Shown: positions 25,617 to 63,568 of the stretch, one piece after another
How the letters are laid out: each line of letters opens with the position of its first letter
How positions within the stretch are numbered: position 1 is the stretch's first letter
From: Pseudobutyrivibrio sp. UBA1225
GTDB lineage: Bacteria; Bacillota; Clostridia; Lachnospirales; Lachnospiraceae
Reading direction: 5' to 3'
DNA: 64,000 nucleotides
NCBI GenBank assembly: GCA_002309345.1
Contig: DBWZ01000094.1
Span: forward strand, 13,950-77,949
Translations under genes and position numbers: made by a program
Notes under the pieces: generated by a model
What the model was told of the DNA's origin: nothing
The model's input: the letters and a program-made list of their open reading frames with translations, nothing else
Databases searched by the model: none

Positions 25617-25819
25617 TTGTATTTTCCTTTCTAAAATTGATAATTATAAATAAAAAACAGTTACATATATATATATCAATAAAAAAATTATTTTTTTTCC
25701 AAAATTTGGAAAAAAATCCATATTTTTTATTGAATTATATATGTACATGTACAGAAGATTGTTACTTTTTTGACAAAGAGGTAGCAAATAATTAACAGAA
25801 AAAATATGGAGGAAAATTA

Positions 25820-26377
25820 ATGAAGAAACAAATTATTGCAACAACATTACTTGCAACTATGGCATTAACAGTGGGCTATGCCAACAAGGCAGACGTAAAG
25901 GTTGCTACGCACGAGGGAAATGTAGTTGAAGCTAAAGCAGATTATGTTAGTCCAATAGATACATCCGATTATACCCAATTACCAGTGGTATATGGGCGTT
26001 ATGCAGAAGCAGCTGGACCTAGGTATATTTTTGATAAATATACCGATGAGGAAACATCTAATTTTACTAATTCCCTTAAAGAAAATGTATATAGTTTTAA
26101 AAGAAAGGGTAACAATTATCCTGATATGCAGATGAAAACATATATGGATAATACATATGGTTCCGAAGAGGTGGCAAGTATCACTGTTTACAGCAATAGT
26201 GTGCCAATGGGAAAGGGAAATATGATTGGGAAATCATTCGACTATGTAAAGAACTCAATTAAATATGCACCGCTGAGACAAGGGAATGATTGGCTACAAT
26301 ACGAGTGTGCAGGCGGTACGATTGAATATAGTGGATCCAATGGTAAGGTGACGAGTGTATCTCTATTTTTTAAATAG
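25820..26377 (+). CDS. Secreted hypothetical protein, paralog 1
   Basis: GGAGG SD, signal peptide MKKQIIATTLLATMALTVGYA. Confidence 0.8.
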   Translation: MKKQIIATTLLATMALTVGYANKADVKVATHEGNVVEAKADYVSPIDTSDYTQLPVVYGRYAEAAGPRYIFDKYTDEETSNFTNSLKENVYSFKRKGNNYPDMQMKTYMDNTYGSEEVASITVYSNSVPMGKGNMIGKSFDYVKNSIKYAPLRQGNDWLQYECAGGTIEYSGSNGKVTSVSLFFK

Positions 26378-26536
26378 ACATTAATTTTAAAAGTGATTTT
26401 GAAGCAATCACTGTAAAAAATGGTGTTAAATGAAAAACACCTTCTTTTATTGAATAATATATGTACATGTACAGTGGGGGCTACTTTTTATAGAAGAAGT
26501 AGCATAACTAGCTTTAAAGACAGGAGGAAAAATTCT

Positions 26537-27055
26537 ATGAAGAGAAAACAATTGATTGCAGCGACATTACTTGCATCTATGGTATTGACTGTTGGCTATG
26601 CCAACAAGGCAGATGTAAAGGTTACTACACATGAAGGAAATGTAGTTGAGACGAAAGCGGGTATTGATTCTTTGAAAACAATAAACGGCTTGACAATCAA
26701 TAATTATCCGGTAGCTTTTTTGTTATCTAAAGATTATAATGATATGTTTCCGGATGATTCTTCTAGTATTCCTTGGGAAAGGACCATTTATATCTATAAA
26801 GATAATGATCTTAAGTTGGTGCTCAAGGTAGATAAAAACACTAATCGAGTAAACTCAGTTTCAACCTATACTGATGATGTTGACTTAGGTTATGGAATGA
26901 AAATCGGAAATTCAATAAGTGATATAAAGAAGAGTATTCCTCTTAAACCAAAATATGAATGGGGCGAGGATGTGGGATACGACCTCGGAGATACTACGGT
27001 TCAACTACGCGCTGAGGATGGCAAGTTAGTTGGTGTAGATTTATTAAGAAATTAG
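26537..27055 (+). CDS. Secreted hypothetical protein, paralog 2
   Basis: AGGAGG SD, N-terminal 40 aa nearly identical to paralog 1; start moved to 26537. Confidence 0.8.
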   Translation: MKRKQLIAATLLASMVLTVGYANKADVKVTTHEGNVVETKAGIDSLKTINGLTINNYPVAFLLSKDYNDMFPDDSSSIPWERTIYIYKDNDLKLVLKVDKNTNRVNSVSTYTDDVDLGYGMKIGNSISDIKKSIPLKPKYEWGEDVGYDLGDTTVQLRAEDGKLVGVDLLRN

Positions 27056-27086
27056 ATGCACAAATAAACTAGTTATGTAATTATAT

Positions 27087-27128
27087 AAAGTGATTGTCAC
27101 AGAGTATTTTGTGACAATCACTTTTTTT
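27087..27128 (+). terminator. Terminator after paralog 2
   Basis: AAAGTGATTGTCACA...TGTGACAATCACTTTTTTT. Confidence 0.8.
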
Positions 27129-27298
27129 GTTTTCGCAAATTTTTTGGGAATAAAATCAAGAAAAAAACACCCAAGACATGATTTGTTCTCTACATATCAA
27201 CTAAGTGTGGGTGTTTTTTTTAGAAAAGAGGATTAGAAAGCTAACAAAATGCAAAATTTTCTTTATCCATTTTATATCCTCCGTTAAACAGATTTTGT

Positions 27299-27991
27299 CT
27301 ACTGTTTGTTATTATGGAGTAATGGTTGTTGGCTGTCATATGAAGGTGCTGAGGAAATCTGGCTAGCATTTTCATCGATACCATTAGTGTATGTAGATCG
27401 GTTGTACGGATTGTTTGCTACATATACGGGGGGTTGTTGTTGCCCTTTCTTATAATTAATCATTTCGCCTGCAAGTTCTCCAATCCTATATTTGAGAACT
27501 TTCTCTTTTAGTTTATTTATCTTGCTTGCTTCCTCAACTTTTTCGTTTAATCTCTTATAGTTATTTTTTAAATCATTTTTATAAAGCTTTTTTACTTCTT
27601 TTTTAAGCGAAGAATTTTCAATTTTTTTCTTTAATGTTTTACTCTCTTCAATTAGATTGAATGCGGATTCATACTCGGCTTTTCGCAGTGCTACTTTGGT
27701 TTCATAGTATGTTCGTACTATCTTAATCTGTTTTGAATTAAGTTTTTTAACATCTTTTATACTTAAATAAGCGCTTTTTCTTTTATCATAGTCTTTTTTT
27801 AGTTCTTGCGGCACCTCGCTTTTGGGAATTTTTTTTAAGGCCTCTTTTAGTCTTTCAATCATTGCATCTTTTTCTTTTATAAGTGCATTGTTCGCATTGT
27901 TTTTCTTTCCGGTTCGATTTTTTAGATAATCCTTTAAAAAACCTTTGATCTTAAACTTTGTTTTCTTTTTTGCTTCATTTTTGTTTGACAT
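27299..27991 (-). CDS. ORFan B: very Lys-rich helical protein with Q/P-rich tail
   Basis: 230-codon ORF, AGAAAGGA SD, downstream hairpin AAAAAAACACCC..GGGTGTTTTTTT. Confidence 0.68.
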   Translation of the reverse strand: MSNKNEAKKKTKFKIKGFLKDYLKNRTGKKNNANNALIKEKDAMIERLKEALKKIPKSEVPQELKKDYDKRKSAYLSIKDVKKLNSKQIKIVRTYYETKVALRKAEYESAFNLIEESKTLKKKIENSSLKKEVKKLYKNDLKNNYKRLNEKVEEASKINKLKEKVLKYRIGELAGEMINYKKGQQQPPVYVANNPYNRSTYTNGIDENASQISSAPSYDSQQPLLHNNKQ

Positions 27992-28171
27992 ATTTTTATC
28001 CTTTCTATTGCTAAGTAAATTTTTTAGTGTCAGGCATCTACAAAATCACAAATAGTCAATCGTAGGTGCGTCTATATAGTAATTCAATAAAATTTTTGAG
28101 ATTTTTCCATTTCTTACGAATTTATTGCGAATTCTAAGAAATATTTAAGAAATCTTTTAGATTTAGCTCAC

Positions 28172-28200
28172 TTGTAAAATTCCCTTGAAACGAGTATGAT
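28172..28200 (+). promoter_or_regulatory. SigmaA promoter for the DUF4190-ileS unit
   Basis: TTGTAA-N17-TATGAT. Confidence 0.6.
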
Positions 28201-28239
28201 TATTAAGATTAGGAACACTATAAGCTGTTAGGAGTATGT

Positions 28240-28641
28240 ATGAACGAAGATTACATGTTTGAAGAAGAAGTAGACAAGAACAAAGAACCTGAAAAAACAG
28301 TTAATGAAACAACTCCAGAGGTTGGGGCGGGTTACTATTACAATCAGCAGCCTAGCAACACTGGAATGGCAATAGGTTCATTTGTTTCAGGGTTACTGGC
28401 TTTACTGTTTTTTTCAGTGGGAGTCAACCTACTAGTTGCTTTAATCAGTATAGCCCTTGGAATAGTTTTTTTAACCAAGACCAATGAAATACAGGGTAGA
28501 ACTCTTGCCAAGGTAGGCATCGTTGTTTCCATAATCAGCATTATATTGTTTGTTGGCTCAGTCATTTGGATTCTCCCAAACGCTGAGAATTTAACACAGA
28601 TGTACGATTCACTCCCTTACTATAACGGGGTGAAGTATTAA
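28240..28641 (+). CDS. DUF4190-like membrane protein
   Basis: GMAIGSFVSGLLAL..GRTLAKVGIVVSII pattern. Confidence 0.7.
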   Translation: MNEDYMFEEEVDKNKEPEKTVNETTPEVGAGYYYNQQPSNTGMAIGSFVSGLLALLFFSVGVNLLVALISIALGIVFLTKTNEIQGRTLAKVGIVVSIISIILFVGSVIWILPNAENLTQMYDSLPYYNGVKY

Positions 28642-28710
28642 TACATATTAAAATAAGAGAAGGGTTGTGTGACGAGAAAGCACGACCTCATAGAAAGGAA
28701 TTACTTTTAT

Positions 28711-31700
28711 ATGTACAACAAGGTAGACGCAAGCTTAAATTTTGTTGAGCGCGAAAAACAGGTGCTCAAATTCTGGCAGGACAACGATATCTTCCAGAAA
28801 TCAATGGATTCAAGAAAAGAAGGAGAGACTTACACATTCTACGATGGACCTCCTACAGCAAATGGCAAACCTCATATCGGTCACGTAGAGACTCGAGCTA
28901 TCAAGGACATGATTCCAAGATACCAGACAATGAAGGGCAAATATGTACCCCGTAAGGCTGGTTGGGATACACATGGTCTTCCAGTAGAGCTTGAGGTAGA
29001 AAAGTTGCTTGGCCTCAACGGTAAAGAACAAATCGAAAACTACGGTATGGAGCCTTTCATCAAAAAATGTAAGGAATCCGTATGGAAATATAAGGGAATG
29101 TGGGAGGACTTCTCAGGAACAGTTGGTTTCTGGGCCGATATGGACAATCCTTACATCACATATGATGACAATTTCATCGAGTCAGAGTGGTGGGCACTCA
29201 AGACAATCTGGGACAAGAAGCTTCTTTACAAGGGATTCAAAATCGTTCCTTACTGTCCTCGTTGTGGTACTCCGCTCTCAGCTCAAGAGGTTGCTCAGGG
29301 TTACAAGACGGTCAAGGAGCGTTCAGCAATCGCTCGTTTCAAAATCAAAGGTGAGGATGCATACTTCCTTGCTTGGACAACTACACCATGGACACTTCCA
29401 TCCAACCTTGCACTTTGCGTAAATCCAATCGAAACTTACATCAAAGTCAAGGCTGCAGATGGCTATACATACATCCTTGCAGAGGCTCTTGCAGACAAGG
29501 TTCTTTCAAAGCTTGCCACAGAAGAAGGCGCAAAGGCATACGAAGTACTTGAAACCTACAAGGGTACAGATCTTGAGTACAAGGAATATGAGCCACTCTT
29601 TGAATGTGCAGGTATTGCCGCAGAAAAGCAGCACAAGAAGGCTCACTTCGTAGTTTGTGATGATTACGTTACCATGTCAGATGGTACTGGTATCGTACAT
29701 ATCGCTCCTGCATTTGGTGAGGACGATGCCAAGGTTGGTCGCAAGTATGATCTTCCATTTGTACAGTTCGTAAATGGCAAGGGTGAGCTCACAGAAGAGA
29801 CTCCTTATGCAGGTCAGTTCGTTAAGGATGCCGATCCAAACGTTCTCAAGGATTTGGATGCCAAGGGACAGCTTTTCGAGGCTCCTAAGTTCGAGCACGA
29901 GTATCCACACTGCTGGAGATGCGACACTCCACTTATCTACTACGCTAGAGAATCATGGTTCATCAAGATGACCGAGGTCAAGGATGACCTGATTAAAAAT
30001 AACAACACTGTAAATTGGATTCCAGATTCAATCGGTAAGGGACGTTTTGGAGATTGGCTCGAGAACGTTCAGGACTGGGGTATCTCTCGTAACCGTTACT
30101 GGGGCACTCCACTCAATATCTGGGAATGTCCAGATTGTGGCAAGCAGATTTCAATCGGTAGCCGCAAGGAGTTAGCAGAGCTTTCTGGTCGCGCAGACGC
30201 AGAGTCTATCGAGCTTCATCGTCCATACATCGATGAGGTTACATGCACTTGCCCAGATTGCGGCGGTACAATGAAGCGTGTGCCAGAAGTTATCGACTGC
30301 TGGTTTGATTCAGGAGCTATGCCATTTGCTCAGCATCACTATCCATTCGAAAACAAGGAGATTTTTGAGCAGCAGTTCCCAGCCAAGTTTATTTCCGAAG
30401 CTGTTGACCAGACTCGTGGTTGGTTCTACTCGTTGATGGCTGAGTCAACCTTGCTTTTCAACAAGGCTCCTTATGAAAATGTAATCGTCCTTGGTCACGT
30501 TCAAGATGAAAACGGTCAAAAGATGTCCAAGTCAAAGGGCAATGCAGTTGATCCATTCGAAGCTCTTGAAAAGATGGGTGCAGATGCAATCAGATGGTAT
30601 TTCTACACATCTTCAGCACCATGGATCCCAAAGAGATTTGGTGAAAATGCAGTTATGGAAGGCCAGAGAAAGTTCCTTGGAACACTTTGGAATACATATG
30701 CTTTCTATATTTTATATGCGAACATTGATGAGTTTGATCCTACCAAGTATGAGCTTGACTTTAACAAGCTTGCAGTTATGGACAAATGGATCCTTTCTCG
30801 TCTCAATTCGGCAATCAAGGCTGTAGATGAGAACCTTGACGCATACAAGATTCCAGAGGCAGCAAGAGCACTTGATGAGTTCGTAGACGATTTGTCTAAC
30901 TGGTATGTACGCCGTTGTCGCGATAGATTCTGGGCAAAGGGTATGGAGCAGGACAAGATTAATGCTTACATGACACTTTACACTTGCCTTAAGGATATTG
31001 CACTTGCAGCAGCACCAATGATTCCATTTATGACAGAGGAAATCTATCAGAACATGGTTCGCTCAGTAGACAAGACAGCTCCTGAGTCAATCCACCTTTG
31101 TGATTTCCCTGCATACAATGAGCAGTTTATTGACAAGAAGCTCGAGGAAGATATGGATGAGCTTCTCAAGATTGTTGTTCACGGTCGTGCATGTAGAAAT
31201 ACAGCAGCCATCAAGAACCGTCAGCCAATCGGTCAGATGTACATCAAGGCTGAGCACGAGCTTGATGATATGTATGTTTCTATCATCGAGGATGAGCTTA
31301 ATGTTAAAAAGGCTACATTTACAGATGATGTTTCATCATTTACATCATACAGCTTCAAGCCACAGCTTCGTACAGTAGGACCTAAGTACGGCAAGTTCCT
31401 CGGTGGCATCCAAAAAGCACTTGCCTCACTTGATGGCAATGCAGCATACGCAGATCTCAAGGCAAATGGGGTATTAAGATTGCCAGAGGTTGATGCTTCT
31501 ATCGAGCTTGCAGAGGAAGACTTACTTATCTCTATGGCTCAGACAGAGGGCTTTGTAGCAGATGGCGACAACTATGTAACAGTAGTTCTCGATACAAATC
31601 TTACAGAAGAGCTTCTTGAGGAAGGCTTTGTAAGAGAGCTTGTTTCGAAGATTCAGACAATGCGTAAGGAAGCAGATTTCGAAGTTATGGATCGAATCAC

Positions 31701-31869
31701 AGTTTCTTACGAAGGATCTGATAAAATAAATAGTATCTTTGAGGCAAACAAGGATGAAATCGCAGGTGAAGTCCTTGCGGATGAGATAGTTGTGGGCGCT
31801 GAAGGCACTTACAGCAAAGACTGGAACATCAACGGAGAGAAGGTTAAGTTATCAGTTACAAGGATTTAA
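28711..31869 (+). CDS. ileS: Isoleucine--tRNA ligase, type 2
   Basis: PHIGH, KMSKS, GWDTHGLP, PYCPRCGTPLS, DWGISRNRYWG; start 28711. Confidence 0.96.
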   Translation: MYNKVDASLNFVEREKQVLKFWQDNDIFQKSMDSRKEGETYTFYDGPPTANGKPHIGHVETRAIKDMIPRYQTMKGKYVPRKAGWDTHGLPVELEVEKLLGLNGKEQIENYGMEPFIKKCKESVWKYKGMWEDFSGTVGFWADMDNPYITYDDNFIESEWWALKTIWDKKLLYKGFKIVPYCPRCGTPLSAQEVAQGYKTVKERSAIARFKIKGEDAYFLAWTTTPWTLPSNLALCVNPIETYIKVKAADGYTYILAEALADKVLSKLATEEGAKAYEVLETYKGTDLEYKEYEPLFECAGIAAEKQHKKAHFVVCDDYVTMSDGTGIVHIAPAFGEDDAKVGRKYDLPFVQFVNGKGELTEETPYAGQFVKDADPNVLKDLDAKGQLFEAPKFEHEYPHCWRCDTPLIYYARESWFIKMTEVKDDLIKNNNTVNWIPDSIGKGRFGDWLENVQDWGISRNRYWGTPLNIWECPDCGKQISIGSRKELAELSGRADAESIELHRPYIDEVTCTCPDCGGTMKRVPEVIDCWFDSGAMPFAQHHYPFENKEIFEQQFPAKFISEAVDQTRGWFYSLMAESTLLFNKAPYENVIVLGHVQDENGQKMSKSKGNAVDPFEALEKMGADAIRWYFYTSSAPWIPKRFGENAVMEGQRKFLGTLWNTYAFYILYANIDEFDPTKYELDFNKLAVMDKWILSRLNSAIKAVDENLDAYKIPEAARALDEFVDDLSNWYVRRCRDRFWAKGMEQDKINAYMTLYTCLKDIALAAAPMIPFMTEEIYQNMVRSVDKTAPESIHLCDFPAYNEQFIDKKLEEDMDELLKIVVHGRACRNTAAIKNRQPIGQMYIKAEHELDDMYVSIIEDELNVKKATFTDDVSSFTSYSFKPQLRTVGPKYGKFLGGIQKALASLDGNAAYADLKANGVLRLPEVDASIELAEEDLLISMAQTEGFVADGDNYVTVVLDTNLTEELLEEGFVRELVSKIQTMRKEADFEVMDRITVSYEGSDKINSIFEANKDEIAGEVLADEIVVGAEGTYSKDWNINGEKVKLSVTRI

Positions 31870-31977
31870 TAAAATGGTGGAATGAGTGAAACCACCAGCA
31901 AAATGTGAAAAATAGTCCGTTGAAAAAGACTGAATGTGCAACGGACGAGTGAAAATTTAAGATTGGGGGTTGAGTGA

Positions 31978-35332: not shown

Positions 35333-35356
35333 TTTGCACGGAAGTTTATCATAGAG

Positions 35357-35389
35357 GCCAGGAAGACCGTTGGGTTTTCCTGGTTTTTT
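35357..35389 (+). terminator. Intrinsic terminator after the CPBP gene
   Basis: GCCAGGAAGACC / GGGTTTTCCTGGT followed by T6. Confidence 0.75.
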
Positions 35390-35452
35390 CTATGAAATTG
35401 GAAAAAGGACTTTCCTTCCATATCATTATTTTATTTATAGGAGGAAAGGAAT

Positions 35453-36517: not shown

Positions 36518-36588
36518 TTTACTTGTGATATAATCACACCTAGATATTGACTGAATATTCAAGTCAAAACTTTAGGTGGGATCGTATT

Positions 36589-50804: not shown

Positions 50805-50865
50805 TACTAGCTATCTATACTTAAGCATAACAATGTATTTAGTTTTTAGAACGGGGGTCTAATTT

Positions 50866-52461: not shown

Positions 52462-52483
52462 TGAATTATCAACTTGTTACACT

Positions 52484-52546
52484 CTCAAGCCTGAGATATT
52501 GTCTCTAGTGACTGCAAATGTCACCTTCGACAACACTCAGGATTGA
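52484..52546. repeat. Second copy of the 64-bp REP-like hairpin at 50628-50691
   Basis: CTCAAGCCTGAGATATTGTCTC..GTGACT..ATGTCACCT.CGACAACACTCAG near-identical. Confidence 0.8.
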
Positions 52547-52578
52547 GAGCATATCGAGCGGATTTAGGAGAATGTAAT

Positions 52579-53274: not shown

Positions 53275-53340
53275 TTCTACTTAATAGAGCGTTAGTTCTT
53301 TAGTAGTAGGTAGATTGCAAAATATTTAGAAATACTTTTT

Positions 53341-53380
53341 GGCGACTAATCTAGAAGATGATTTTAGATTAGTCGTTTTT
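53341..53380 (+). terminator. Terminator after araD
   Basis: GCGACTAATCTA..TAGATTAGTCGT followed by T run. Confidence 0.75.
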
Positions 53381-53399
53381 TGCACCTAGGTTTTTGGGG

Positions 53400-53483
53400 A
53401 AGTGCAAAAATAACACCTTGATATAAATAAAGTGCAATATTTGCACTTATATAATTTACAAAAGTGCAAACAGATTGTATAAT
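53400..53483 (+). promoter_or_regulatory. TA-operon promoter with AAGTGCAA operators
   Basis: Palindrome AAGTGCAA-TAT-TTGCACTT (53430-53448), half-sites at 53400 and 53462, TTTACA-N17-TG.TATAAT-like -10 at 53478. Confidence 0.7.
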
Positions 53484-53504
53484 ATGCATACGGAGGTGTC
53501 TAAT

Positions 53505-53981
53505 ATGAGTGAGTCTTTAAAAGAAATAAGAAAAAATATTGGGTATACTCAAAAACAAGCTGCCGAGTACCTAAATGTTTCACTTAGATCATATAAATCA
53601 TATGAGAATGATCCTAATAAAATTGGTTCTATAAAATATAGTTACATGATTGAGCAACTAGAAAAATTAGATTATATAGATGAAACACATGGTATTCTTT
53701 CTATTGAAAATATAAAAGATAGATGTAGTAATATATTTAAAGAATACAATATTGAATACTGTTATTTATTCGGGTCATATGCTAAAAGTAAAGCTAAAGA
53801 GGATAGTGATGTTGATTTGTTAATATCATCAACTGTTAAAGGTCTAAAATTCTATGGTTTGGTGGAAAAGATATCTACTTCACTTAAGAAAAAAATAGAC
53901 TTGTTAGATATAAATCAACTTGTTGATAATCCAAAATTATTAAACGAAATACTAAAGGATGGAATAAAAATATATGGATAA
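53505..53981 (+). CDS. XRE-HTH fused to a minimal nucleotidyltransferase (MntA-like antitoxin)
   Basis: IRKNIGYTQKQAAEYLNVSLRSYKSYE HTH; GSX10DXD motif GSYAKSKAKEDSDVD. Confidence 0.85.
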   Translation: MSESLKEIRKNIGYTQKQAAEYLNVSLRSYKSYENDPNKIGSIKYSYMIEQLEKLDYIDETHGILSIENIKDRCSNIFKEYNIEYCYLFGSYAKSKAKEDSDVDLLISSTVKGLKFYGLVEKISTSLKKKIDLLDINQLVDNPKLLNEILKDGIKIYG

Positions 53982-54306
53982 TGTAAAATATGATGGATAT
54001 TATCTTGAGAAGATGAAATCTGATTTATTGTTTATTGATAGAAATATGATGGGAATAACAAAGACAGAATTTGCTGAAAATGAAATTCTGCAGGATTCCA
54101 TGATGTTTCGATTAATTCAAATATCTGAGAATGCTAGAAAGCTTTCTGAAGAATTTAGAGCTAAACAAAGTAGTATTCCTTGGGGCGATATTTTTGGATT
54201 AAGAAATAAGATTGTTCATGATTATGGGAGAGTGGATTTGGAGATAGTATATGAAACTTTACTGTATGATATCCCTGATGTCTATGAATTATTAAAAGAT
54301 TTTTAA
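53974..54306 (+). CDS. HEPN (DUF86/HepT-like) RNase toxin
   Basis: RX4HXY motif RNKIVHDY; 8-bp overlap with the MNT gene. Confidence 0.85.
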   Translation: MDNVKYDGYYLEKMKSDLLFIDRNMMGITKTEFAENEILQDSMMFRLIQISENARKLSEEFRAKQSSIPWGDIFGLRNKIVHDYGRVDLEIVYETLLYDIPDVYELLKDF

Positions 54307-54346
54307 TACTATATATTTTGGCTTTTGATTGTATATGGAGGCAGTT

Positions 54347-55213
54347 ATGGATGAATCAATAATAGTAAAAAAAATGTCGCGCATAGGGATTCTTGGGAAT
54401 GTTGTGCTAGCGGGCTTCAAATTATTGGCTGGTATTTTTGGTCATTCTAGTGCCATGATATCTGATGCGGTTCATTCTCTGTCGGATGTTTTTGCAACCT
54501 TAATTGCTTATGTGGGGGTGCTGATGTCCAAGCAGCCCGAGGATGACGAGCATCCATATGGACACGAGCGACTTGAGTGCGTGGCCTCCCTTGCTCTTGG
54601 TATTATTCTTGCGGCTACAGGGCTTGGTATCGGTTATTCGGGGATTCACAAGATAATCGAGCCTAAGGAACTTGAGATTCCAACCTTGCTTCCTCTAGTT
54701 GCCGCAGTTGTGTCAATTGTTGTGAAGGAAGGAATGTTTTGGTACACAATGCACTATGCCAAGATATTGAATTCGTCTGCCTTCAAGGCTGATGCGTGGC
54801 ATCATCGTTCCGATGCTATTTCTTCGGTTGGCTCCTTCATCGGTATTGGCTTGGCAAAGATGGGATTCCCAATCATGGATCCAATTGCAAGTTTGCTGAT
54901 TTGCATATGCATCATAAAGGTTGCTTATGACATTTCAAAAGATGCCTTTGTGAAGATGTTAGATACATCCTGCGGTCAAGAGTTTGAGCAAGATATAAGA
55001 AGCTTCATCGAAGCTCAGCCGGGTGTGGAGCGAATCGATCTGTTGCACACTAGGCAGTTCGGAAACAAGAATTACGTTGAACTTGAAATCGCAGTAAAGG
55101 GTGATATTTCGCTTATAGATGCCCACAATATTGCTGAAGATGTTCATGACGGCCTGGAGACAAATTATCCAAATATCAAGCATGTGATGGTGCATGTTAA
55201 TCCACTTGAGTAA
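54347..55213 (+). CDS. Cation diffusion facilitator transporter (FieF-like)
   Basis: SDAVHSLSD, HPYGHERLE, DAWHHRSD, C-terminal VHVNP. Confidence 0.92.
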   Translation: MDESIIVKKMSRIGILGNVVLAGFKLLAGIFGHSSAMISDAVHSLSDVFATLIAYVGVLMSKQPEDDEHPYGHERLECVASLALGIILAATGLGIGYSGIHKIIEPKELEIPTLLPLVAAVVSIVVKEGMFWYTMHYAKILNSSAFKADAWHHRSDAISSVGSFIGIGLAKMGFPIMDPIASLLICICIIKVAYDISKDAFVKMLDTSCGQEFEQDIRSFIEAQPGVERIDLLHTRQFGNKNYVELEIAVKGDISLIDAHNIAEDVHDGLETNYPNIKHVMVHVNPLE

Positions 55214-57047
55214 GAGTCTTTTTCCCACAGAACTCTTCGTAGGATAACTCAATTTCGATAAATCCAGAAGCCCATGGTCCAACAGAATATGGAGCAAATT
55301 TATAAATTATTTTATCTTCCTTAAAGAAGATAGGTGCCTCTGATATACTATAATATCCAACACTTTCCAAAGCGTTATATTTTGCCCCTTGTGCATCTTC
55401 AGCAAAATATTTATTCGGGTTTCTATTGAAATCTTCTTCGACTTTTTTAGCTATAAGTTCGTCCAAGTCATCTCTAGTTCCTGGATAGAAGTTTGTGGGA
55501 TTAAGCTCTTCACCTGTGTTCAGGTCGAATATTAATTGTTTATCATTTACCATTCCATGAGCAGCACCAGATCCATATTCGTAAAAACTGCAATCTATAA
55601 ACAAGAATTGATTATTTAATATCAACACATCCTCAACACTTGAATCATATGAATTACAAAATATTTTTTTATCCTTAATTTCTTCATGATGTTCACACTC
55701 ATCTTTGCTTGTAGGCATGAAATCCAAAGTGCAAGCTAAATGCTCATTTATTTTTTCATTAATAGAAGCGGCATGTTTTGAGTATTTGTCATCTAGTTGG
55801 AAAGCAGTTGAGCTCGTAGTACCTACAATGGTACCACAATATGGGCAAACAGATTCTTTATAATTGTAAACAAGTTTTCCATAAGTGAGAGCATAGACTT
55901 TTTCTGCGGGACAGTCAATATCGATTGCTTGATATACTCCATCGTTGTTATCTATTCTTATCCATCTATATTCATCATCAATTATATGTTTGCAAAAAAT
56001 AGTATTCTCATGCATTTCAAATGTGTAGTAGCCGTGTTCGAGGGTTGAAGTATAGATTTCGCAATCAGATTTTGTAGTCAAATCTAGTTCATGTATGGAA
56101 AGGAATGTCGGGTGATTATCTGTATGCTTTTCTACAGCATAATATATTTTATTGTTTGCATATATATTTGCATATTCATCAATATTATCAGTTATCGTTA
56201 ATACAGAAGTTTTTTTGCCATCGTCAAAGTTGACAGAATAAATATTACTGTAATCATAATAAACCATGCAATCTTTGTTATATGCGTAAACTATCCCCTC
56301 TATTTCTGTAACGTTTTCCTTTTTTCCATCAGGGAAAATTTTTATAATATCATTTTTATTTTCAGCTAAAACGAATCCCACATCATCAAATATTCTAGCT
56401 AAAGAACCATATCCATTGTACGCATCTAAATTAACTATAAATTTGTAATCTTTTGCACTAGATATTACTTTATCAAATTTAGATTGGGCAGGGGTATAAG
56501 TAAAATCATCATTTATCGTAAATACGTATTCTTTGAATGGGGTATTCTCATCATAAGACGATACTCCTATATATATTTTGCCATTGTAGATATCGAAATA
56601 TCCGTGACTATATAAATCTCTTGTATCTTTATCAAGAGTTGCTAACTTTTGAGATTTTCCGGAATTCAAGTCTATGGCGTAGATACTATCAAAAGAATCA
56701 TAGTAATTAACATATAGTATTCCATCATATATTTTCAATTCATAAATTTCTTCAGGGTCCATACCATTTTCTTCATAAATTTTGTTAATATCGCTAACTG
56801 AGAATTCGCCTAATTTTTCACCATTTTTATCTACGACAAAGCGAACATTTTTCCCGTGTAATATATATCCTTCACCTTTAATAGGTTTACCTGTATAAAT
56901 GGATTCAGCTTTAGTGGTTGCGGTAGTAGATGTAGTTGTGTCTTTTTGTGTGGGATGTTTAGATTTATTATTTTTGGTGCCGCAAGCAATAAGAGATATA
57001 GACATCGACAAAAGCAATGTTATAAATACAATTCTTCTTTTATTCAT
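55197..57047 (-). CDS. AT-rich lipoprotein, beta-rich N-terminal part, DUF3298/RsiV-like C-terminus
   Basis: Lipobox LIAC, Thr-rich linker, YGSGAAHG..FDLNTGE..FAPYSVGPWASGF pattern. Confidence 0.7.
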   Translation of the reverse strand: MNKRRIVFITLLLSMSISLIACGTKNNKSKHPTQKDTTTSTTATTKAESIYTGKPIKGEGYILHGKNVRFVVDKNGEKLGEFSVSDINKIYEENGMDPEEIYELKIYDGILYVNYYDSFDSIYAIDLNSGKSQKLATLDKDTRDLYSHGYFDIYNGKIYIGVSSYDENTPFKEYVFTINDDFTYTPAQSKFDKVISSAKDYKFIVNLDAYNGYGSLARIFDDVGFVLAENKNDIIKIFPDGKKENVTEIEGIVYAYNKDCMVYYDYSNIYSVNFDDGKKTSVLTITDNIDEYANIYANNKIYYAVEKHTDNHPTFLSIHELDLTTKSDCEIYTSTLEHGYYTFEMHENTIFCKHIIDDEYRWIRIDNNDGVYQAIDIDCPAEKVYALTYGKLVYNYKESVCPYCGTIVGTTSSTAFQLDDKYSKHAASINEKINEHLACTLDFMPTSKDECEHHEEIKDKKIFCNSYDSSVEDVLILNNQFLFIDCSFYEYGSGAAHGMVNDKQLIFDLNTGEELNPTNFYPGTRDDLDELIAKKVEEDFNRNPNKYFAEDAQGAKYNALESVGYYSISEAPIFFKEDKIIYKFAPYSVGPWASGFIEIELSYEEFCGKKTLTQVD

Positions 57048-57353
57048 AATTATCCTTCCTCAAATAAACGAGTGACTTCTATAAATACGTTAAATAGCTA
57101 GAACTCACGCAATCAAAAATGATGCCGTTGCTTCTGTTGCAGAAACAATAAACTATTCGATGGTAACAGTTATATGAGTAATTATCAACACTATCCATGT
57201 AATTCGAGGTAAAATTATTTTGGCATTTTTATTACCAACCTAGTTGATATCATCCCATGCACTGGTATATATTAATAGTGCGAATACAAGCTATTGCTAC
57301 TATAAGATGGCAAAAAAATAACACGTAGTACAAAAACTAGTTGTGAGCAGGGG

Positions 57354-59987
57354 ATGTATATGGAACAATACAACGTTACAGGCATGAGCTGTGCGGCATG
57401 TCAGGCCAGAGTGGAAAAGGCTGTAAGTGAAGTTCCTGGAGTGGAAAACTGTGCAGTGAGTCTACTTACTAACTCAATGGGAGTAGAGGGAACAGCTGAT
57501 GCTGCAGATATAATCAAAGCTGTTGAGCAGGCAGGCTATGGAGCAAGCTTAAAGAGCAACCTAAGCAGCGCTGATAGTGGTCTTGGTACCACCGTCGATG
57601 GCTTCACGCCAAATTATGATAATGAATTAAAAGATTTAGAGACGCCAGTTATCAAAAAGAGACTCGTTGCGTCTCTAGTTTTATTGCTTCCACTTATGTA
57701 TGTAAGCATGGGCCATACCATGTGGAACTGGAAATTGCCAGGATTTTTGGATGGCAATCCAGTTGGTATAGGAATCACCCAGTTGATTTTGGCTATGCTT
57801 GTGATGGTCATCAACCAAAAGTTCTTTACAAGTGGTTTTAGAGGTCTCATCCACCGAGCTCCTAACATGGACACTTTGGTGGCGCTTGGATCTGCAGCGT
57901 CGTATCTATACAGCGTTTATGGATTATATGAAATGACACTTGCCCAGTTGGCGGGAGATTCAACAAGGGTGCATCAGTGGCATCACGACTTATATTTTGA
58001 ATCTGCAGCGATGATTCTCACCTTGATTACAGTAGGTAAGCTTTTGGAATCTATATCAAAGGGGCGCACAACAAATGCTCTCAAAGAATTGATGAAGCTT
58101 ACTCCGAAGACGGCAATCCTAATCAAAGATGGAATCGAAAAGGTTGTTCCTATCCAGCAGGTTAAAATAAAGGATCAATTTGTTGTAAAAGCAGGAGACA
58201 ACATCCCAGTGGATGGAGTGGTAATCGACGGTGATGGTGCGGTAAACGAATCCGCCCTCACGGGAGAGAGCATCCCTGTTGATAAAACGGTAGGCGATAC
58301 AGTTTCTGCGGCAACCATCAACGAAAGTGGATATATGGTCTGTGAGGCAACACGAGTTGGAAAGGACACAACTCTAGCCCAGATCATTCAAATGGTAAGC
58401 GATGCAGCAGCAACCAAGGCACCTATTGCCAAGGTGGCAGATAAGGTATCGGGAGTGTTCGTTCCAGTAGTTATCGTAATTGCGATAATAACTTTAATCA
58501 TTTGGTTACTAGTAGGACAGCCTTTTGGTTATGCTCTTGCAAGAGCCATATCAGTTCTTGTAATTAGCTGTCCATGTGCTCTTGGGCTTGCGACTCCTGT
58601 GGCAATCATGGTTGGAAATGGCATGGGCGCCAAGCATGGCATCATGTTCAAAACAGCAGTTTCCCTTGAACAAACAGGCAAGGTTCAAATCGTAGCATTA
58701 GATAAAACAGGTACAATCACCAAGGGCGAGCCAAAGGTCCTTGGTGCCTTCCAAGGGGATGACGTTGACGATGTAGATTTACTTCAAGCAGCTTTTGCCC
58801 TAGAGAACAAATCAAATCATCCTTTGGCCAAGGCAATAGTAGAGTACTGCTACGAGCTTGGACTTGAGCCAAACGAAGCGGAACAGTTTGAAAACTTATC
58901 TGGCAGTGGACTGAAGGCGGTTTTAGATGGCAAGAAAATCTACGGAGGCAATCTAGAGTTTATAACTTCATATATAAATGTTCCTGAAAAGGATATAAGT
59001 CTTGCTGATAAGCTTTCCGAAAATGGTGAGACGCCATTATTCTTCGCAAGTGAAGATAGATTTTTAGGAATCATATCTGTAGCAGATGTGATTAAGGATG
59101 ATTCTCCAGAGGCAATCAAGCAGCTTAAAAATATGGGTATCCATGTGGTGATGCTCACTGGCGACAACGACAAGACGGCCAGAGCCATAGCCGAGGATGC
59201 AGGCGTGGACGAGGTGGTTGCAGGCGTCAAGCCTGATGGCAAAGAAGCAATCATAAGAGAGCTTCAGAAGCATGGGAAAGTGGCTATGGTGGGCGATGGC
59301 ATAAACGATGCGCCGGCTCTTACTAAGGCGGACATGGGAATAGCCATCGGCGCAGGCACAGATGTGGCTATAGACGCAGCAGATGTTGTTCTTATGAAAA
59401 GTCGACTCACGGATGTGGCGGCAGCCATCCGCCTCAGTCGGGCGACCTTAAAGAATATTCATGAGAATCTGTTTTGGGCGTTTTTCTATAACGTGATAGG
59501 AATTCCGCTAGCTGCGGGAGCTTATATACATGCCTTTGGGTGGACACTAAATCCGATGTTCGGCGCAGCAGCTATGAGCCTTTCTAGTTTTTGTGTGGTC
59601 ACAAATGCTTTGCGATTGAACCTAATTGATATTTATAACATCCGTAAAGATAGAAAAATAAAAGCTTCAATAGAGACGAATGAACTTTTAAGTAAAGATT
59701 TGTCGTCTGATTCTGATTCAATAGATGGAAACAAAAGATTTGTTGATGGAATTATAGTTGGAAAAAAGGAGGATATTTCAACCATGGAAATAACAGTAAA
59801 AGGTATGATGTGCCAGCATTGCGAGGCCCACGTGAAGGAAGCCTTGGAGAAAATCCCCGGTGTGGAAGAGGCAACAGCAAATCATGATGCTAGTCTTGTC
59901 ACACTCAAAACATCAGCTGACATTTCTGAGGCAGAACTTAAGGCTGCAGTGGAAGCTGCAGGCTACGAGTATGCAGGGATTAAATAA
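57354..59987 (+). CDS. copA: Copper-translocating P1B-type ATPase with N- and C-terminal HMA domains
   Basis: GMSCAAC, TGES, CPCALGLATP, DKTGT, GDGIND, YN..MSLSS (Cu+ type), C-terminal GMMCQHC. Confidence 0.88.
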   Translation: MYMEQYNVTGMSCAACQARVEKAVSEVPGVENCAVSLLTNSMGVEGTADAADIIKAVEQAGYGASLKSNLSSADSGLGTTVDGFTPNYDNELKDLETPVIKKRLVASLVLLLPLMYVSMGHTMWNWKLPGFLDGNPVGIGITQLILAMLVMVINQKFFTSGFRGLIHRAPNMDTLVALGSAASYLYSVYGLYEMTLAQLAGDSTRVHQWHHDLYFESAAMILTLITVGKLLESISKGRTTNALKELMKLTPKTAILIKDGIEKVVPIQQVKIKDQFVVKAGDNIPVDGVVIDGDGAVNESALTGESIPVDKTVGDTVSAATINESGYMVCEATRVGKDTTLAQIIQMVSDAAATKAPIAKVADKVSGVFVPVVIVIAIITLIIWLLVGQPFGYALARAISVLVISCPCALGLATPVAIMVGNGMGAKHGIMFKTAVSLEQTGKVQIVALDKTGTITKGEPKVLGAFQGDDVDDVDLLQAAFALENKSNHPLAKAIVEYCYELGLEPNEAEQFENLSGSGLKAVLDGKKIYGGNLEFITSYINVPEKDISLADKLSENGETPLFFASEDRFLGIISVADVIKDDSPEAIKQLKNMGIHVVMLTGDNDKTARAIAEDAGVDEVVAGVKPDGKEAIIRELQKHGKVAMVGDGINDAPALTKADMGIAIGAGTDVAIDAADVVLMKSRLTDVAAAIRLSRATLKNIHENLFWAFFYNVIGIPLAAGAYIHAFGWTLNPMFGAAAMSLSSFCVVTNALRLNLIDIYNIRKDRKIKASIETNELLSKDLSSDSDSIDGNKRFVDGIIVGKKEDISTMEITVKGMMCQHCEAHVKEALEKIPGVEEATANHDASLVTLKTSADISEAELKAAVEAAGYEYAGIK

Positions 59988-60140
59988 GAGACAAGAATAC
60001 AATCAAGATAATTTTTGAAAGAAATGATATGTGTTTGTAAAAGCTGATTTTGAGAGGAATGACTCATATATAGAATATTATGTCAATTCTCTGTTGATAG
60101 AAACTTTTTGCGATAATTCTGGAAAATAGTGCACTTTACA

Positions 60141-60167
60141 TAAAATATTCACACAACTAGCCGATAA
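60141..60167 (+). promoter_or_regulatory. Sigma28 (FliA/SigD)-type promoter
   Basis: TAAA-N15-GCCGATAA, exact consensus. Confidence 0.75.
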
Positions 60168-60254
60168 CATATGTTAGTATATATTATAGGTTAAAGTCCC
60201 GTCTGGGGAATGAGGGCCTTTAATCTGTGAGAGATTTATTGGAAGGGTTGTGGT

Positions 60255-61007
60255 TTGATGAAGAGATGTACCAAAAGAATTATGTGTATTTGCTATGCTT
60301 TGTTACTTGTCGGAGGAGGATGGTTTAATGTGTCGGACACTGCACAGGCCAAGCAGATAGCAAAGAGTTCAGAGAAGTCTAGGGTGGTAGTTATCGATCC
60401 TGGATATCAGCTGAAGGCAGATATGGGTAAGGAGCCTATAGGACCTGGAGCTTCGAAGGAAACTTACAACATGCTTAGTGGTGAGAAGAATAAATCTGCC
60501 GACTATACTGAGTATGAAATGAATCTTCAGATAGCATTTAAGCTTCAAAAAATGCTAGAGAAGGATGGCTATACGGTTATTCTTACTAGAACGGCTAACG
60601 ATGTTAATATCAGCAACAGTGGACGAGCGATGATTGCCAATATGGCAGATGCAGATATCTTTGTTGAAATCACAGCGTTGGGTGTTTACTCAAAGGCGGA
60701 CAGTGGAGTCGAGGTTATCTGTCAGTCAGATGATAATCCATACAATTATGGTAATTACGATAAATCTAGATTGCTATCCGATGCAGTTCTTGGTTCAACA
60801 ATTCAGGCAACTGGAAGCACTAAGAGTCAGGTCATTGAACAAGACGATGTGGCAATCATCAATTGGTGCGCAATTCCAACTACAGTCGTAGAGGTTGGTT
60901 CGTTGCTTGATAAGGACGATGCGGAAAAGCTTGTTACAGATGATTATCAAGAAGATCTTGCCAAAGGAATAGCCGCAGGAATTGAAAGCTATTTTGCACA
61001 GAAGTAA
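60255..61007 (+). CDS. Amidase_3 (N-acetylmuramoyl-L-alanine amidase) homolog, probably catalytically inactive
   Basis: Signal peptide; VVIDPGYQ, EYEMNL, TR..D, FVEITA, VVEVG; both Zn-ligand His positions are replaced. Confidence 0.85.
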   Translation: MMKRCTKRIMCICYALLLVGGGWFNVSDTAQAKQIAKSSEKSRVVVIDPGYQLKADMGKEPIGPGASKETYNMLSGEKNKSADYTEYEMNLQIAFKLQKMLEKDGYTVILTRTANDVNISNSGRAMIANMADADIFVEITALGVYSKADSGVEVICQSDDNPYNYGNYDKSRLLSDAVLGSTIQATGSTKSQVIEQDDVAIINWCAIPTTVVEVGSLLDKDDAEKLVTDDYQEDLAKGIAAGIESYFAQK

Positions 61008-61012
61008 AATTT

Positions 61013-61045
61013 CACCTCTATCTCGTGATGAGATAGAGGTGTTTT
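61013..61045. terminator. Bidirectional terminator between amidase and ORFan C
   Basis: CACCTCTATCTC-GTGAT-GAGATAGAGGTG-TTTT. Confidence 0.8.
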
Positions 61046-61061
61046 TACTTCAATAGGAATT

Positions 61062-63431
61062 TTAGTGTTTTTGTTTTAGATATATATGCGCTAGGGGTTT
61101 TTGAGTTTCATACTCCTGTGCTACTACATGTATAGGTAACGATTCTTTCCTTGGTGTAGTTAATGGTTCATGCGTAGGCAAGGTTGAATTATTGTAATCG
61201 TTTTTTAAAAAAGATTGACGGTAATCTTTTTCGGGATCAAACGTATGAGCGTAAAATAGAGTATTAGTAGTCGGTTCTTTTTGGGGTACGTTAATAGATG
61301 ATTCTATTTGGCGTCGTAAAAAGCCAGTTTTATTATATTTGTATATATCCTCGGTGAGTTTATTAAGTTTTTTATTTTTTATACCTTGGATAATATGAAA
61401 ATTATCATCGGTTATTTCCCAACGTTGTTGTAGTTTTTTTATTATTGTATTATTCTTTCTCATATCATATTTGTGACCTTCAATTATTTCTTGTATTTCC
61501 TTAGGAGCATCTTTAATAGCATGTTTAATATAAACTTTCTCTTGCTCGTCAACATCTTCAAATAATAACATAATATGGTTTGGATTAGTTGAGCTATTAT
61601 ATAAACCCTTTTTTTTAGAGTTCCTATTTTGGGTTATTATCTTTGATTTCTGTAATTTGACCAAGTTTTTATCTAACAAGTTGATGCATTTTTGGGCGGT
61701 ACTATTGTATTTATCTAAGGCGGATACGGCCATTAGGATGTCATGTATGTTAGTAATCTCATCTTGGGAGATGTTGAGAGTCTTCTTGATTTTATTTATA
61801 TGCTCTCTCATATGTGTTGAAAATGTCGAGTATTCTTCATTTATTCTTTCATAATTATCTTTTTTATCTTTAATACTATCTGTAAATTCTTTTTGGCTAT
61901 CAATTGGTTTTGATATATCATTATATAGATTCATAACATCAGATATGCAGTTATTTAAAACGTTTGATGATTGGTTAGCTAAGAGATACAATTTCTCTAT
62001 TGCTTCTTCAGTAATTTTCAAATCGTTATTATTAGATTCTGATGCTTTGTTAGACTTATTTAGCTTCTTTATTTCTTTATGCTTTTTTACACAAGCACCT
62101 ATTGTAGAATAAATGTCTTCACATAGTTTTTCCATTATATTAAGTGAACCATAACGCTGCCCACTTTCAAGTGGCCTATTATCTCGTGTCATTTTGTTAT
62201 AGAAAGTCTTATACAAATTGGCAGCTGATTCATCTGTATTAGTGTGGGAGGATTTATTGGAGCTGTCATTAGTAGGGTTTTTATAGTGAGATAATAATAA
62301 GTAGTTTGTGTAAATATCATACACTGCCTTATTGGCGTTAGTTAATATCACGTCAGTTTCGTTTTTCCATTTACGGTATTCGTTCCAAAAGAACTTAGAT
62401 GAATATTTAGTTCTAGAAGGAAAAAATGGCATTAATCTCTTTTTATTTTTTCGACTTCCATTTGACAGTTCTGATGTAATGACCGCTGGAGTAGGATTGT
62501 TATCTGAAATTGCTGAGATTGAGCCAATATATTGCCTTAAATCATTTGATATTTTTTGCTGTAGAGTTTCACTTTCTGCGCGAAGTTTATCGGATAATTC
62601 TTTCTTGCCTTCTGTCCAAGATTTTAAGTAATTTAAATTATCATCAGAATAATCTTTAGTAGCAAGTATTCTATGTTCTCTATCTTTTAGATTTTGATAA
62701 CTTTCCCATGCATTTTTTTCTTGTGCTTTGAGATCATTAATTTTTTGATTATATTCATTTTTTAAGTCTTTTAGATTAGAGTTACTAGCATTGGTTAAAT
62801 CAAGGTTATTCTCATTTATGTAGCTATCTAAATATCCCATAGCATTGCTATATAATTCAACCTCGTTAGCGAGGTGGTAAATAATTTCTGTCGCTGTTTG
62901 ATTAATAAATTCAAAATATATACCTAATGAGTTTGTGGTAGTTAGTTGTTTAATGGAATTAATATCAGTAGGGTCTAGTCTTTCAGATTTGTTTTTTATC
63001 GAGTCATAGTTTCTAACTATATCTTCTATAACTTCTATATCGGGCAAATTACTAGTATCGTCTGCATTATTTGTAGTAGTTTGCGTGTTATCAATTTTCT
63101 TCCATAATGAATTACAGCTTTTAATTATTTCATTTGCATAAATCATATGGTTAACTAAGAGTTTTAGTTTTTGTTTGTAAACGTCTACTATAGAATTAAA
63201 CATTTCGCCATTCTCAAATTTGGAAAGAGGCATAATTTCCTCTAAATCTTTTAATGCGTTTGAAATAGTAATATGATTTTTTTGTTCATTAAAAAAATAA
63301 GCTTGACATTTGCTTATAATATTATTTCCTTCAGTAATGAAGTTGTCTCTAATATGCTGAAATTTTTCCAAAAGCATGTCGGTATCTGCTATCGTATCAG
63401 TGTTATTTAAATAATATTCATTATTAGGCAT
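61062..63431 (-). CDS. ORFan C: 789-aa N/K-rich helical/coiled-coil protein, no signal peptide or TM
   Basis: Long AT-rich ORF, AAGGAGG SD, P/T-rich tail. Confidence 0.75.
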   Translation of the reverse strand: MPNNEYYLNNTDTIADTDMLLEKFQHIRDNFITEGNNIISKCQAYFFNEQKNHITISNALKDLEEIMPLSKFENGEMFNSIVDVYKQKLKLLVNHMIYANEIIKSCNSLWKKIDNTQTTTNNADDTSNLPDIEVIEDIVRNYDSIKNKSERLDPTDINSIKQLTTTNSLGIYFEFINQTATEIIYHLANEVELYSNAMGYLDSYINENNLDLTNASNSNLKDLKNEYNQKINDLKAQEKNAWESYQNLKDREHRILATKDYSDDNLNYLKSWTEGKKELSDKLRAESETLQQKISNDLRQYIGSISAISDNNPTPAVITSELSNGSRKNKKRLMPFFPSRTKYSSKFFWNEYRKWKNETDVILTNANKAVYDIYTNYLLLSHYKNPTNDSSNKSSHTNTDESAANLYKTFYNKMTRDNRPLESGQRYGSLNIMEKLCEDIYSTIGACVKKHKEIKKLNKSNKASESNNNDLKITEEAIEKLYLLANQSSNVLNNCISDVMNLYNDISKPIDSQKEFTDSIKDKKDNYERINEEYSTFSTHMREHINKIKKTLNISQDEITNIHDILMAVSALDKYNSTAQKCINLLDKNLVKLQKSKIITQNRNSKKKGLYNSSTNPNHIMLLFEDVDEQEKVYIKHAIKDAPKEIQEIIEGHKYDMRKNNTIIKKLQQRWEITDDNFHIIQGIKNKKLNKLTEDIYKYNKTGFLRRQIESSINVPQKEPTTNTLFYAHTFDPEKDYRQSFLKNDYNNSTLPTHEPLTTPRKESLPIHVVAQEYETQKPLAHIYLKQKH

Positions 63432-63568
63432 TTTTCTTTCCTCCTTATAATGTTCATGTGTTATTGTCTACTATATAATTCAAAAAAAAATAGTGTTTTT
63501 TTCCATTGCAAGAAAAAAAGGACACAATGTGCCCTTTGTGAATATAAATACAAAACTAAAATCCATAA

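Follow-up and report, generated by a model that had tools for sequence, protein, structure and literature searches.

A two-hexamer motif upstream of orphan genes probably marks a lineage-specific promoter class in rumen Pseudobutyrivibrio

A DNA stretch of 64,000 nucleotides (nt) from Pseudobutyrivibrio sp. UBA1225 (GenBank assembly GCA_002309345.1, contig DBWZ01000094.1, positions 13,950 to 77,949 of the forward strand; here called the window, position 1 being its first letter) contains at four places a motif of two hexamers, TGGAAA and TTGAAT or TTGATA, which are 16 or 17 nt apart and are followed by a TATA-like run. The initial annotation of the window had described this motif upstream of a few orphan and secreted genes at two distant loci. 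We consider it likely, with a probability of about 80%, that a group of rumen Pseudobutyrivibrio, which is a core genus of the rumen, has a lineage-specific class of promoters with this motif as their core. The set of genes which carry the motif is much larger than the original five and includes genes of a chromosomal type IV secretion system (T4SS). Our literature searches turned up neither the motif nor any account of promoters, alternative regulons or T4SS regulation in Pseudobutyrivibrio.

All four full sites are located where they had initially been placed, and their spacings of 16, 17, 16 and 16 nt had been read correctly; only the right half of the first site, TTGATA, does not conform to the TTGA(A/T)T that had been given for it. 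This site, S1 (25662..25701, minus strand, upstream of ORFan A), consists of TGGAAA at 25701-25696, a 16-nt spacer in which A residues are followed by T residues, TTGATA at 25679-25674 and TATATATATATG at 25673-25662. S2 (25707..25743, plus strand, upstream of paralog 1, par1) has TGGAAA at 25707-25712, a 17-nt spacer, TTGAAT at 25730-25735 and TATATATG at 25736-25743. In S3 (28072..28109, minus strand, upstream of ORFan B), TGGAAA at 28109-28104 is followed after 16 nt by TTGAAT at 28087-28082 and by TACTATATAG at 28081-28072, while S4 (63470..63505, minus strand, upstream of ORFan C) combines TGGAAA at 63505-63500, again 16 nt, TTGAAT at 63483-63478 and TATATAGT at 63477-63470. We regard them as the candidate promoters of these four genes, none of which belongs to a Pfam family. 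All four spacers show a run of A after TGGAAA and a run of T ahead of the second hexamer, and each site lies 40-90 nt upstream of a co-oriented gene with a good ribosome-binding site. A further site, AGGAAA-N17-TTGAAT-ATATAC, occurs about 4 kb past the end of the window (contig L211, approximately 1650-1690) and stands upstream of a gene for 517 residues, also without a Pfam family. On the strand opposite to S3, a sigma-A-like promoter for the divergent DUF4190 gene (TAGTCA-N16-TATAGT, 28053-28086, plus strand) overlaps the TATA part of the site; a near-palindromic TATATA seems to serve both directions here.

The half-motif which had been noticed before paralog 2 (par2; 26445..26463, plus strand) is real. 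Its right half, TTTTATTGAATAATATATG, is intact; the left half, now decayed to ATG-AAAAA, overlaps with the terminator hairpin of par1 (26422-26441). The half-site is part of a 30-nt direct repeat, 97% identical with a period of 720 nt, and is a remnant of the tandem duplication of par1 and par2; in the related strain L083 the full TGGAAA-N17-TTGAAT-TATATATG is found at the paralog 2 position. An inverted repeat of about 80 bp had been reported across S1 and S2, and an imperfect one does exist (25667..25742; 38+38 nt, 76% complementary), but it amounts to two abutting divergent promoters. As divergent pairs of this kind are 20-80 nt apart in the relatives (contigs L081, L118, L108 and L136), the palindrome is a by-product of their close packing in the window.

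The motif is real and occurs well beyond chance expectation. The loose pattern TGGAAA-N16/17-TTGAWW has five matches in the whole window versus 0.32 expected, one of which (8374-8402) is a GC-rich chance match within a coding region. When a first-order Markov background was trained on the window's intergenic DNA, four matches were observed in 5,744 bp of intergenic sequence against 0.013 expected, and four against 0.01 in intergenic DNA below 30% GC (1,269 bp). The initial annotation had cautioned that AT-richness inflates chance matches; chance in AT-rich DNA is ruled out by AT-matched simulations. It had also stated that housekeeping genes lack the motif, and this holds: none of those in the window carries it, and the 18 other intergenic regions with a length of 80 bp or more are all free of it. 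In 1.54 Mb around ileS from 80 other Lachnospiraceae loci there are four loose matches, none of which has the form of the motif. A general promoter of the Lachnospiraceae could be dismissed, as neither these 80 loci, which belong to other genera, nor the syntenic region in three further Pseudobutyrivibrio species contain the motif. A phage promoter was also rejected, because the pattern TGGAAAAA-N9/10-TTTTWTTGAAYTA, with which metagenome contigs were scanned as well, has only three matches in 2.9 million viral contigs and there are no meaningful PHROG matches. The same applies to a known RNA element, no Rfam family reaching its gathering score anywhere in the window.

The window comes from a rumen Pseudobutyrivibrio. 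Its proteins cluster at identities of at least 90% with those of Pseudobutyrivibrio sp., P. xylanivorans, MD2005, JW11 and YE44, and the DNA runs which contain its sequence are bovine rumen or gut metagenomes. Contig L081 from a related strain is syntenic, with a crotonase gene, a divergent orphan gene, a par1 homologue (54% protein identity) and a par2 homologue. Three copies of the motif are present on this contig, one as TGGAAA-N16-TTGAAC-TATATATAG, which is the site orthologous to S1, and two as TGGGAA-N16-TTGAAC-TATAAATG. The hexamers of S2 are kept in L081, L083 and L136 despite diverged flanks, and throughout L081, L083, L136 and L118 the elements TGG(A/G)AA, T-tract, TTGAAY and TATAWAT are retained while flanks and spacer vary. 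In alignments of six par promoters and of four promoters at the ORFan A position, the invariant columns concentrate on TGG.AA, the T-tract, TTGAA. and TATA.AT, and flanks and spacers drift. That the hexamers are kept at orthologous sites while the rest drifts points to selection on specific letters.

There are also relatives in which the genes are missing. The interval from crotonase to ileS in YE44, JW11 and MA3014 contains neither the island with ORFan A, the par genes and ORFan B nor the motif. At the second locus, one contig from an RNA run joins position 61047 directly to 63568 via 29 unrelated letters, which indicates a related strain without the whole ORFan C cassette. Since island or cassette and motif are absent together, promoter and gene are gained or lost jointly, as cassettes.

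Beyond the window, metagenome contigs were scanned with the exact pattern TGGAAAAA-N9/10-TTTTWTTGAAYTA, which was found at 120 or more loci. Of the 115 unique hits listed, 57 form one coherent class, mostly from rumen assemblies, while the remaining half or so are scattered chance matches from unrelated environments. Members of the class share positions outside the search pattern, namely phased, UP-like A/T tracts upstream and, downstream, TAtAaAT-AG(A/G) followed by a purine-rich segment. The consensus starts with the phased A/T tracts (AAAWWTWTTTTNNAAAA), continues with TGGAAA (sometimes AGGAAA or TGGGAA), a spacer of 16/17 nt with an A-tract at its start and a T-tract at its end, and TTGAAY (with TTGATA and TTGAAA variants), and proceeds through TA plus a TATA-like run (TAtAaAT) and purine-rich AG(A/G)GG to the ribosome-binding site and the start codon. 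Among the matches listed, the hexamers are separated by 16 nt in 44 sites and by 17 nt in 21, and the start codon is found at a median distance of 65 nt downstream (interquartile range 52-77). Looser searches in the same loci add the variants TTGATA, TTGAAA, AGGAAA and TGGGAA. With these secondary sites the density is approximately one per 14-16 kb, which translates into a rough figure of 200 sites per genome, the loci having been chosen for containing a site. The observation that unrelated low-GC orphans at distant loci share the motif can thereby be extended to dozens of loci in the same lineage.

The first downstream open reading frames at the metagenome sites listed represent about 40 unrelated families. 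A Pfam scan (E<=1e-4) of 52 motif-driven proteins gave no match for 46 of them. The matches were to T2SSE (two cases), to the TrbC/VirB2 pilin (one), to the glycosyltransferase family GT2 (one; the site before this gene is probably a chance site) and to two weak coiled-coil-type families. Motif-driven genes have 33% GC, compared to 38% for their neighbours, which are ordinary chromosomal genes such as those for Hsp70, DnaB and tRNA synthetases. The encoded proteins are rich in N, K, E, Q and S, and a signal-peptide-like N-terminus is lacking in 46 of the 52.

The annotated targets sit in a chromosomal T4SS cluster which codes for VirB11-like, VirB4-like, NlpC/P60, VirD4, VirB2-like and VirB6-like proteins. 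The motif precedes the genes for the VirB2-like pilin and the VirB11-like ATPase as well as the dispersed orphan genes. In the cultured Pseudobutyrivibrio sp. NOR37 and in P. ruminis the cluster is found at one locus, and the variants TGGAAA-N17-TTGAAA-TAAAAATAG and TGGAAA-N16-TTGAAA-TATATAAG occur ahead of the ATPase and pilin genes. The motif thereby marks a large set of orphan and T4SS genes, which are probably co-regulated. Large Mbeg1-like (lipase-like) proteins are encoded inside and beside the Pseudobutyrivibrio T4SS cluster (L207, 3962-6604; L210, 20245-21242). An origin from a Butyrivibrio megaplasmid was considered and rejected: the ATPase of pCY360 is 34% identical, yet the motif is absent. 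On this plasmid (B. proteoclasticus, L217, 214486-255538) a different recurrent string, similar to TTTGTGCAGAAAAATA, is found upstream of several hypothetical genes.

On sequence grounds, the motif is a selected, promoter-positioned cis element. A promoter is the only reasonable reading because of its position, orientation and conservation, and because no alternative promoter is evident. A consensus scan of the intergenic regions upstream of the five genes found no sigma-A-type -35/-10 pair, and no space is left for a further promoter, S4 following directly upon the terminator of a K+ channel gene (63537-63517) and S1 and S2 abutting each other. From these data we infer promoter function, a single reader and the class to which this reader belongs. 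A dedicated transcription factor would read the two hexamers and switch on a large dispersed regulon, consisting of low-GC, strain-variable cassettes with one or two unrelated orphan genes and of the chromosomal T4SS genes. At odds somewhat below even, this factor could be an alternative sigma factor with TGGAAA as -35 and TTGAAY as -10 element. The spacing of 16/17 nt would then be the geometry of the sigma-70 family, the letters resemble sigma-H boxes, and a conserved T followed by a purine, 7-8 nt after TTGAAY (positions 12/13), would represent -1/+1.

Several observations weigh against the promoter class or its proposed reader. Neither the T4SS cluster nor the motif-bearing loci that were sampled contain a sigma factor gene, the analysis covering 64 kb and fragments of the genome, and none of the 52 motif-driven proteins has a DNA-binding Pfam domain. 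A phmmer search for regulators near the sites, with SigA, SigW, SigH, MarA, OmpR, AgrA and Spo0A as queries, returned ordinary two-component systems and two AraC-type neighbours without relation to each other. Part of the extended consensus follows from the search pattern itself, and the site density derives from preselected loci. The RNA evidence consists of assembled contigs of rumen metatranscriptomes, some of which cross the motif or break exactly at the start of the shared repeat, and contig ends missed the predicted starts at two control sigma-A promoters. The start-site evidence from contig ends is thus suggestive only. Two start-like ends are at 26471, where the par2 contig begins, and at 28065, where that of ORFan B ends. 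Counted from the first T of TTGAAT they lie 21 and 22 nt downstream, and they are 8 nt beyond TATATG/TATATA, within the 7-10 nt that the initial annotation had proposed for a transcription start. If both mark real starts, the -10 element would be the TATA box, and the sigma factor model would be wrong.

Another mode of recognition, which we regard as a tentative possibility, is an activator-dependent promoter used by the housekeeping sigma factor. In this model TATAWA (6-11 nt downstream of where TTGAAY begins) would serve as -10 element, without a usable -35 element. TGGAAA (at about -40) and TTGAAY (at about -18) would be direct-repeat half-sites (T-K-GAA-W) for a dimeric activator, 22-23 bp or two helical turns apart, and the activator would replace -35 recognition, as is the case for AraC-type and response-regulator-type master regulators of secretion systems. 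T6 and A7 after TTGAAY are near-invariant and fit T-12/A-11 of sigma-A, and several sites have a canonical TATAAT, TATTAT or TACTAT box. When the A/T tracts are aligned to the UP-element consensus, the start is placed about 18 nt after the start of TTGAAY, and a weaker middle repeat, TGAAA, is often found between the hexamers. Beside the par2 and ORFan B contigs, the divergent DUF4190 contig also agrees with such a start, as it begins at 28086, which is 6 nt after the sigma-A-like TATAGT and 21 nt away from the point where the ORFan B contig ends; contig ends are, however, unreliable start-site markers. Moreover, the commonest box, TATAAAT, has A instead of T at -7 and is one base too long for TAnnnT, the 16/17-nt spacing of the hexamers is the exact -35/-10 geometry of the sigma-70 family, and the conserved T-purine at 12/13 is left without a role. 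A candidate activator was not found, the two AraC-type neighbours being unrelated to each other. Taken together, an alternative sigma factor is slightly more likely than an activator acting with sigma-A.

The similarity of the sites could also reflect common descent, without a dedicated factor, if a strong AT-rich promoter cassette with an UP element has been copied along with newly acquired AT-rich genes, or in front of them, as a reused or "mobile" promoter. At many of the metagenome sites listed, unrelated genes are indeed preceded by identical 31-38-nt segments (ATGGAAAAAAATGAAAAATTTTTTTGAATTATAAAT), strains and species differ in the cassettes that they have, and reuse of promoters before non-homologous genes is documented (PMC3575422). 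However, the four window sites differ in spacers and flanks but keep hexamers and spacing, the hexamers also persist at orthologous sites of diverged strains, where the remaining sequence drifts, and they are unlike sigma-A elements. We therefore consider descent without a reader distinctly improbable, although copying and a dedicated factor can both hold. It is highly improbable that the hexamers are a repressor or silencer operator which keeps cassettes of foreign AT-rich DNA off, with the TATA box alone as promoter: the low GC and strain variability of the targets, A/T tracts suggestive of bent DNA and the overlap of the hexamers with the expected binding place of RNA polymerase speak for it, but rumen metatranscriptomes contain par2, ORFan B and the T4SS operon in good coverage (contig depths of about 124, 42 and 34), the promoter would be weak with the hexamers removed and no -35 left, and strict orientation and a fixed TATA distance are more typical of activating or sigma elements.

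The association of orphan genes with the T4SS allows a more far-reaching interpretation of the lineage-specific promoter class. The motif might be the "address label" of a chromosomal Gram-positive T4SS and its cargo, with one regulator and about 100-200 strain-variable orphans as putative translocated substrates. We think this rather unlikely. It draws on the fact that the proteins mostly have no signal peptide and are coiled-coil, N/K-rich and equipped with disordered, positively charged, R/S/Q/P-rich tails. In their last 20 residues, motif-driven proteins have a net charge of +1.5, versus +0.5 in neighbouring proteins (p=0.003), and R, S, Q, P and H are over-represented in these C-terminal tails. 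Five proteins have basic C-termini of the ...[RK]..NS[IVF] type (RRNSV, HRSNSI, RRNSFS, RKNSIS and KRKNSRINKA), and such a basic tail may be a sorting or secretion signal. If the orphans are cargo, a rumen commensal would possess an effector repertoire, directed against other microbes or rumen protozoa.

The genes behind the window sites have few or no relatives. ORFan A (24840..25616, minus strand) codes for a coiled-coil, Q/S/N-rich protein of 258 residues without signal peptide (36% GC), which is a cluster of one. Paralog 1 (25820..26377, plus strand; 185 residues) has a signal peptide and is, like paralog 2 (26537..27055, plus strand; 172 residues, 34% identical), a predicted secreted protein. 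The family of paralog 1 comprises only three clusters among 5.8 billion proteins, and its AlphaFold model (predicted local distance difference test score of 58) gave no informative fold match, the best one in the PDB having a template modelling score of 0.36-0.42. The 5′ leaders of the par genes (25760-25789 and 26479-26503; L081, 1425-1450) may form a short hairpin; the evidence is weak, with two-sided changes that keep the hairpin in 3 of 7 pairs across five sequences. ORFan B (27299..27991, minus strand; 230 residues, 31% GC) is a Lys-rich coiled coil. The N/K-rich ORFan C (61062..63431, minus strand; 789 residues, 29.5% GC) has no relative among the 5.8 billion proteins outside its own cluster, which is 98% identical. 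Its cassette of promoter and gene (61048..63567) is a strain insertion/deletion, and exactly at its ends there is a weak 25-nt inverted repeat (61054-61078 and 63543-63567, 72% complementary), which could be due to chance in AT-rich DNA or could be a trace of cassette movement.

Three further observations concern other parts of the window. A low-GC patch at 53475-54306 (plus strand) contains a toxin-antitoxin-like pair, with a helix-turn-helix and nucleotidyltransferase protein (MntA-like, 168 residues) followed by a HepT-like RNase (110 residues). At 55197-57047 (minus strand) a protein of 616 residues with a C-terminal DUF3298 domain is encoded (32% GC); there is no motif upstream, and no RNA coverage was found at an identity of at least 90% in four metatranscriptomes. 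ileS begins 27 nt after the DUF4190 gene (28641-28669), and neither a T-box nor any other Rfam element is present anywhere in the window; a missing T-box before ileS is unusual for a Firmicute.

The motif links dozens of unannotated genes per genome which have no homologues and ties them to a chromosomal T4SS, so that a block of "hypothetical" genes becomes a testable unit. These genes are real, promoter-equipped and, in at least two cases, seen in rumen metatranscriptomes. It further illustrates the way in which new or foreign low-GC genes become connected to their host, namely as single-gene cassettes with a lineage-specific promoter.

When compared with known promoter classes, most could be rejected. 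A sigma-A promoter does not fit, as there is no TTGACA/TATAAT-like pair 16-18 nt apart at the proper position upstream of the five genes, TTGAAY lacks the A at -11, and the TATA box is 22-23 nt from TGGAAA. The sigma-54 promoter (TGGCAC-N5-TTGCW) has its GG and GC 10 nt apart, while TGG and TTG are separated by 22-23 nt here. The AAC (-35) and CGT (-10) cores of extracytoplasmic function (ECF) sigma factors are absent, with GGAAA and TGAAT in their place, and for PlcR and CodY boxes, compared by eye, spacing or letters do not match. Late promoters of phage T4 have TATAAATA at -10 without a -35 element and are read by gp55. The commonest downstream box of our class is literally TATAAATA; however, T4 promoters lack the upstream hexamers, the motif is not enriched in the viral collection, and we know of no gp55-like gene here. 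LytTR activator sites are 9-bp direct repeats with a 12-bp spacer, located 4-11 bp upstream of the -35 element (PMC6193735); a spacer of 11-13 bp was taken as the criterion here. They share with our motif two direct-repeat-like elements about two helical turns apart, but here the repeats have 6 nt and a period of 22-23 nt, and the proximal one abuts a -10-like box rather than being upstream of a -35 element, so that a LytTR site was rejected.

The initial annotation had felt reminded of sigma-H promoters by the GGA...GAAT pattern. In B. subtilis their consensus, reportedly given by Britton et al. in 2002, is RNAGGAWWW-N11-12-RNNGAATWW, and relatives of sigma-H include ComX and a SigH with a CGAATA box. 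The letters do agree. The -35 core GGA is present at all sites (TGGAAAA, AGGAAAA, TGGGAAA), the preceding base usually being T, and the -10 core GAAT is found as TTGAATTA at S2, S3, S4 and most metagenome sites listed, whereas it is replaced by GATA at S1 and by GAAC or GAAA at some sites. A T-rich tract ahead of the GAAT box is also known from streptococcal ComX promoters, and both classes serve non-housekeeping genes. However, the spacer between the 9-mers is 14 nt (44 sites) or 15 nt (21 sites) rather than the reported 11-12, an excess of 3-4 nt and not of 2-3 as had been estimated. The targets are orphans and T4SS genes instead of sporulation and competence genes, a TATA-like box follows which sigma-H promoters do not have, and no sigH-like gene is linked in the sampled loci. 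As the spacing is off by 3-4 nt, the motif, as far as its letters and geometry tell, resembles sigma-H promoters but is not a member of that class.

Mobile or reused promoters, as described by Nijveen, Matus-Garcia and van Passel (PMC3575422), are near-identical promoters before non-homologous genes, within and between genomes. With identical 31-38-mers before unrelated genes our sites agree with this definition, but specific hexamers and their spacing have outlasted the divergence of the remaining sequence, and this speaks for a dedicated reader.

In its organisation the gene set resembles secretion regulons that are marked by a single box. Examples are the HrpL-dependent hrp box (GGAACC-N15/16-CCACNNA) of Pseudomonas syringae, the PmrA sites of Legionella Dot/Icm effectors and the ExsA promoters of the type III secretion system (T3SS) of P. 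aeruginosa, which have a -35/-10 spacing of 21-22 bp. As in these systems, a bipartite box with fixed spacing is found in Pseudobutyrivibrio before secretion-machine genes and before scattered, fast-evolving, horizontally variable and unrelated genes. Those regulons belong to Gram-negative T3SS and type IVB secretion systems with proven translocated effectors, whereas here a Gram-positive commensal and putative substrates are concerned. If the orphans do prove to be cargo, effectors could be found by promoter scanning, just as searches for the hrp box found T3SS effectors.

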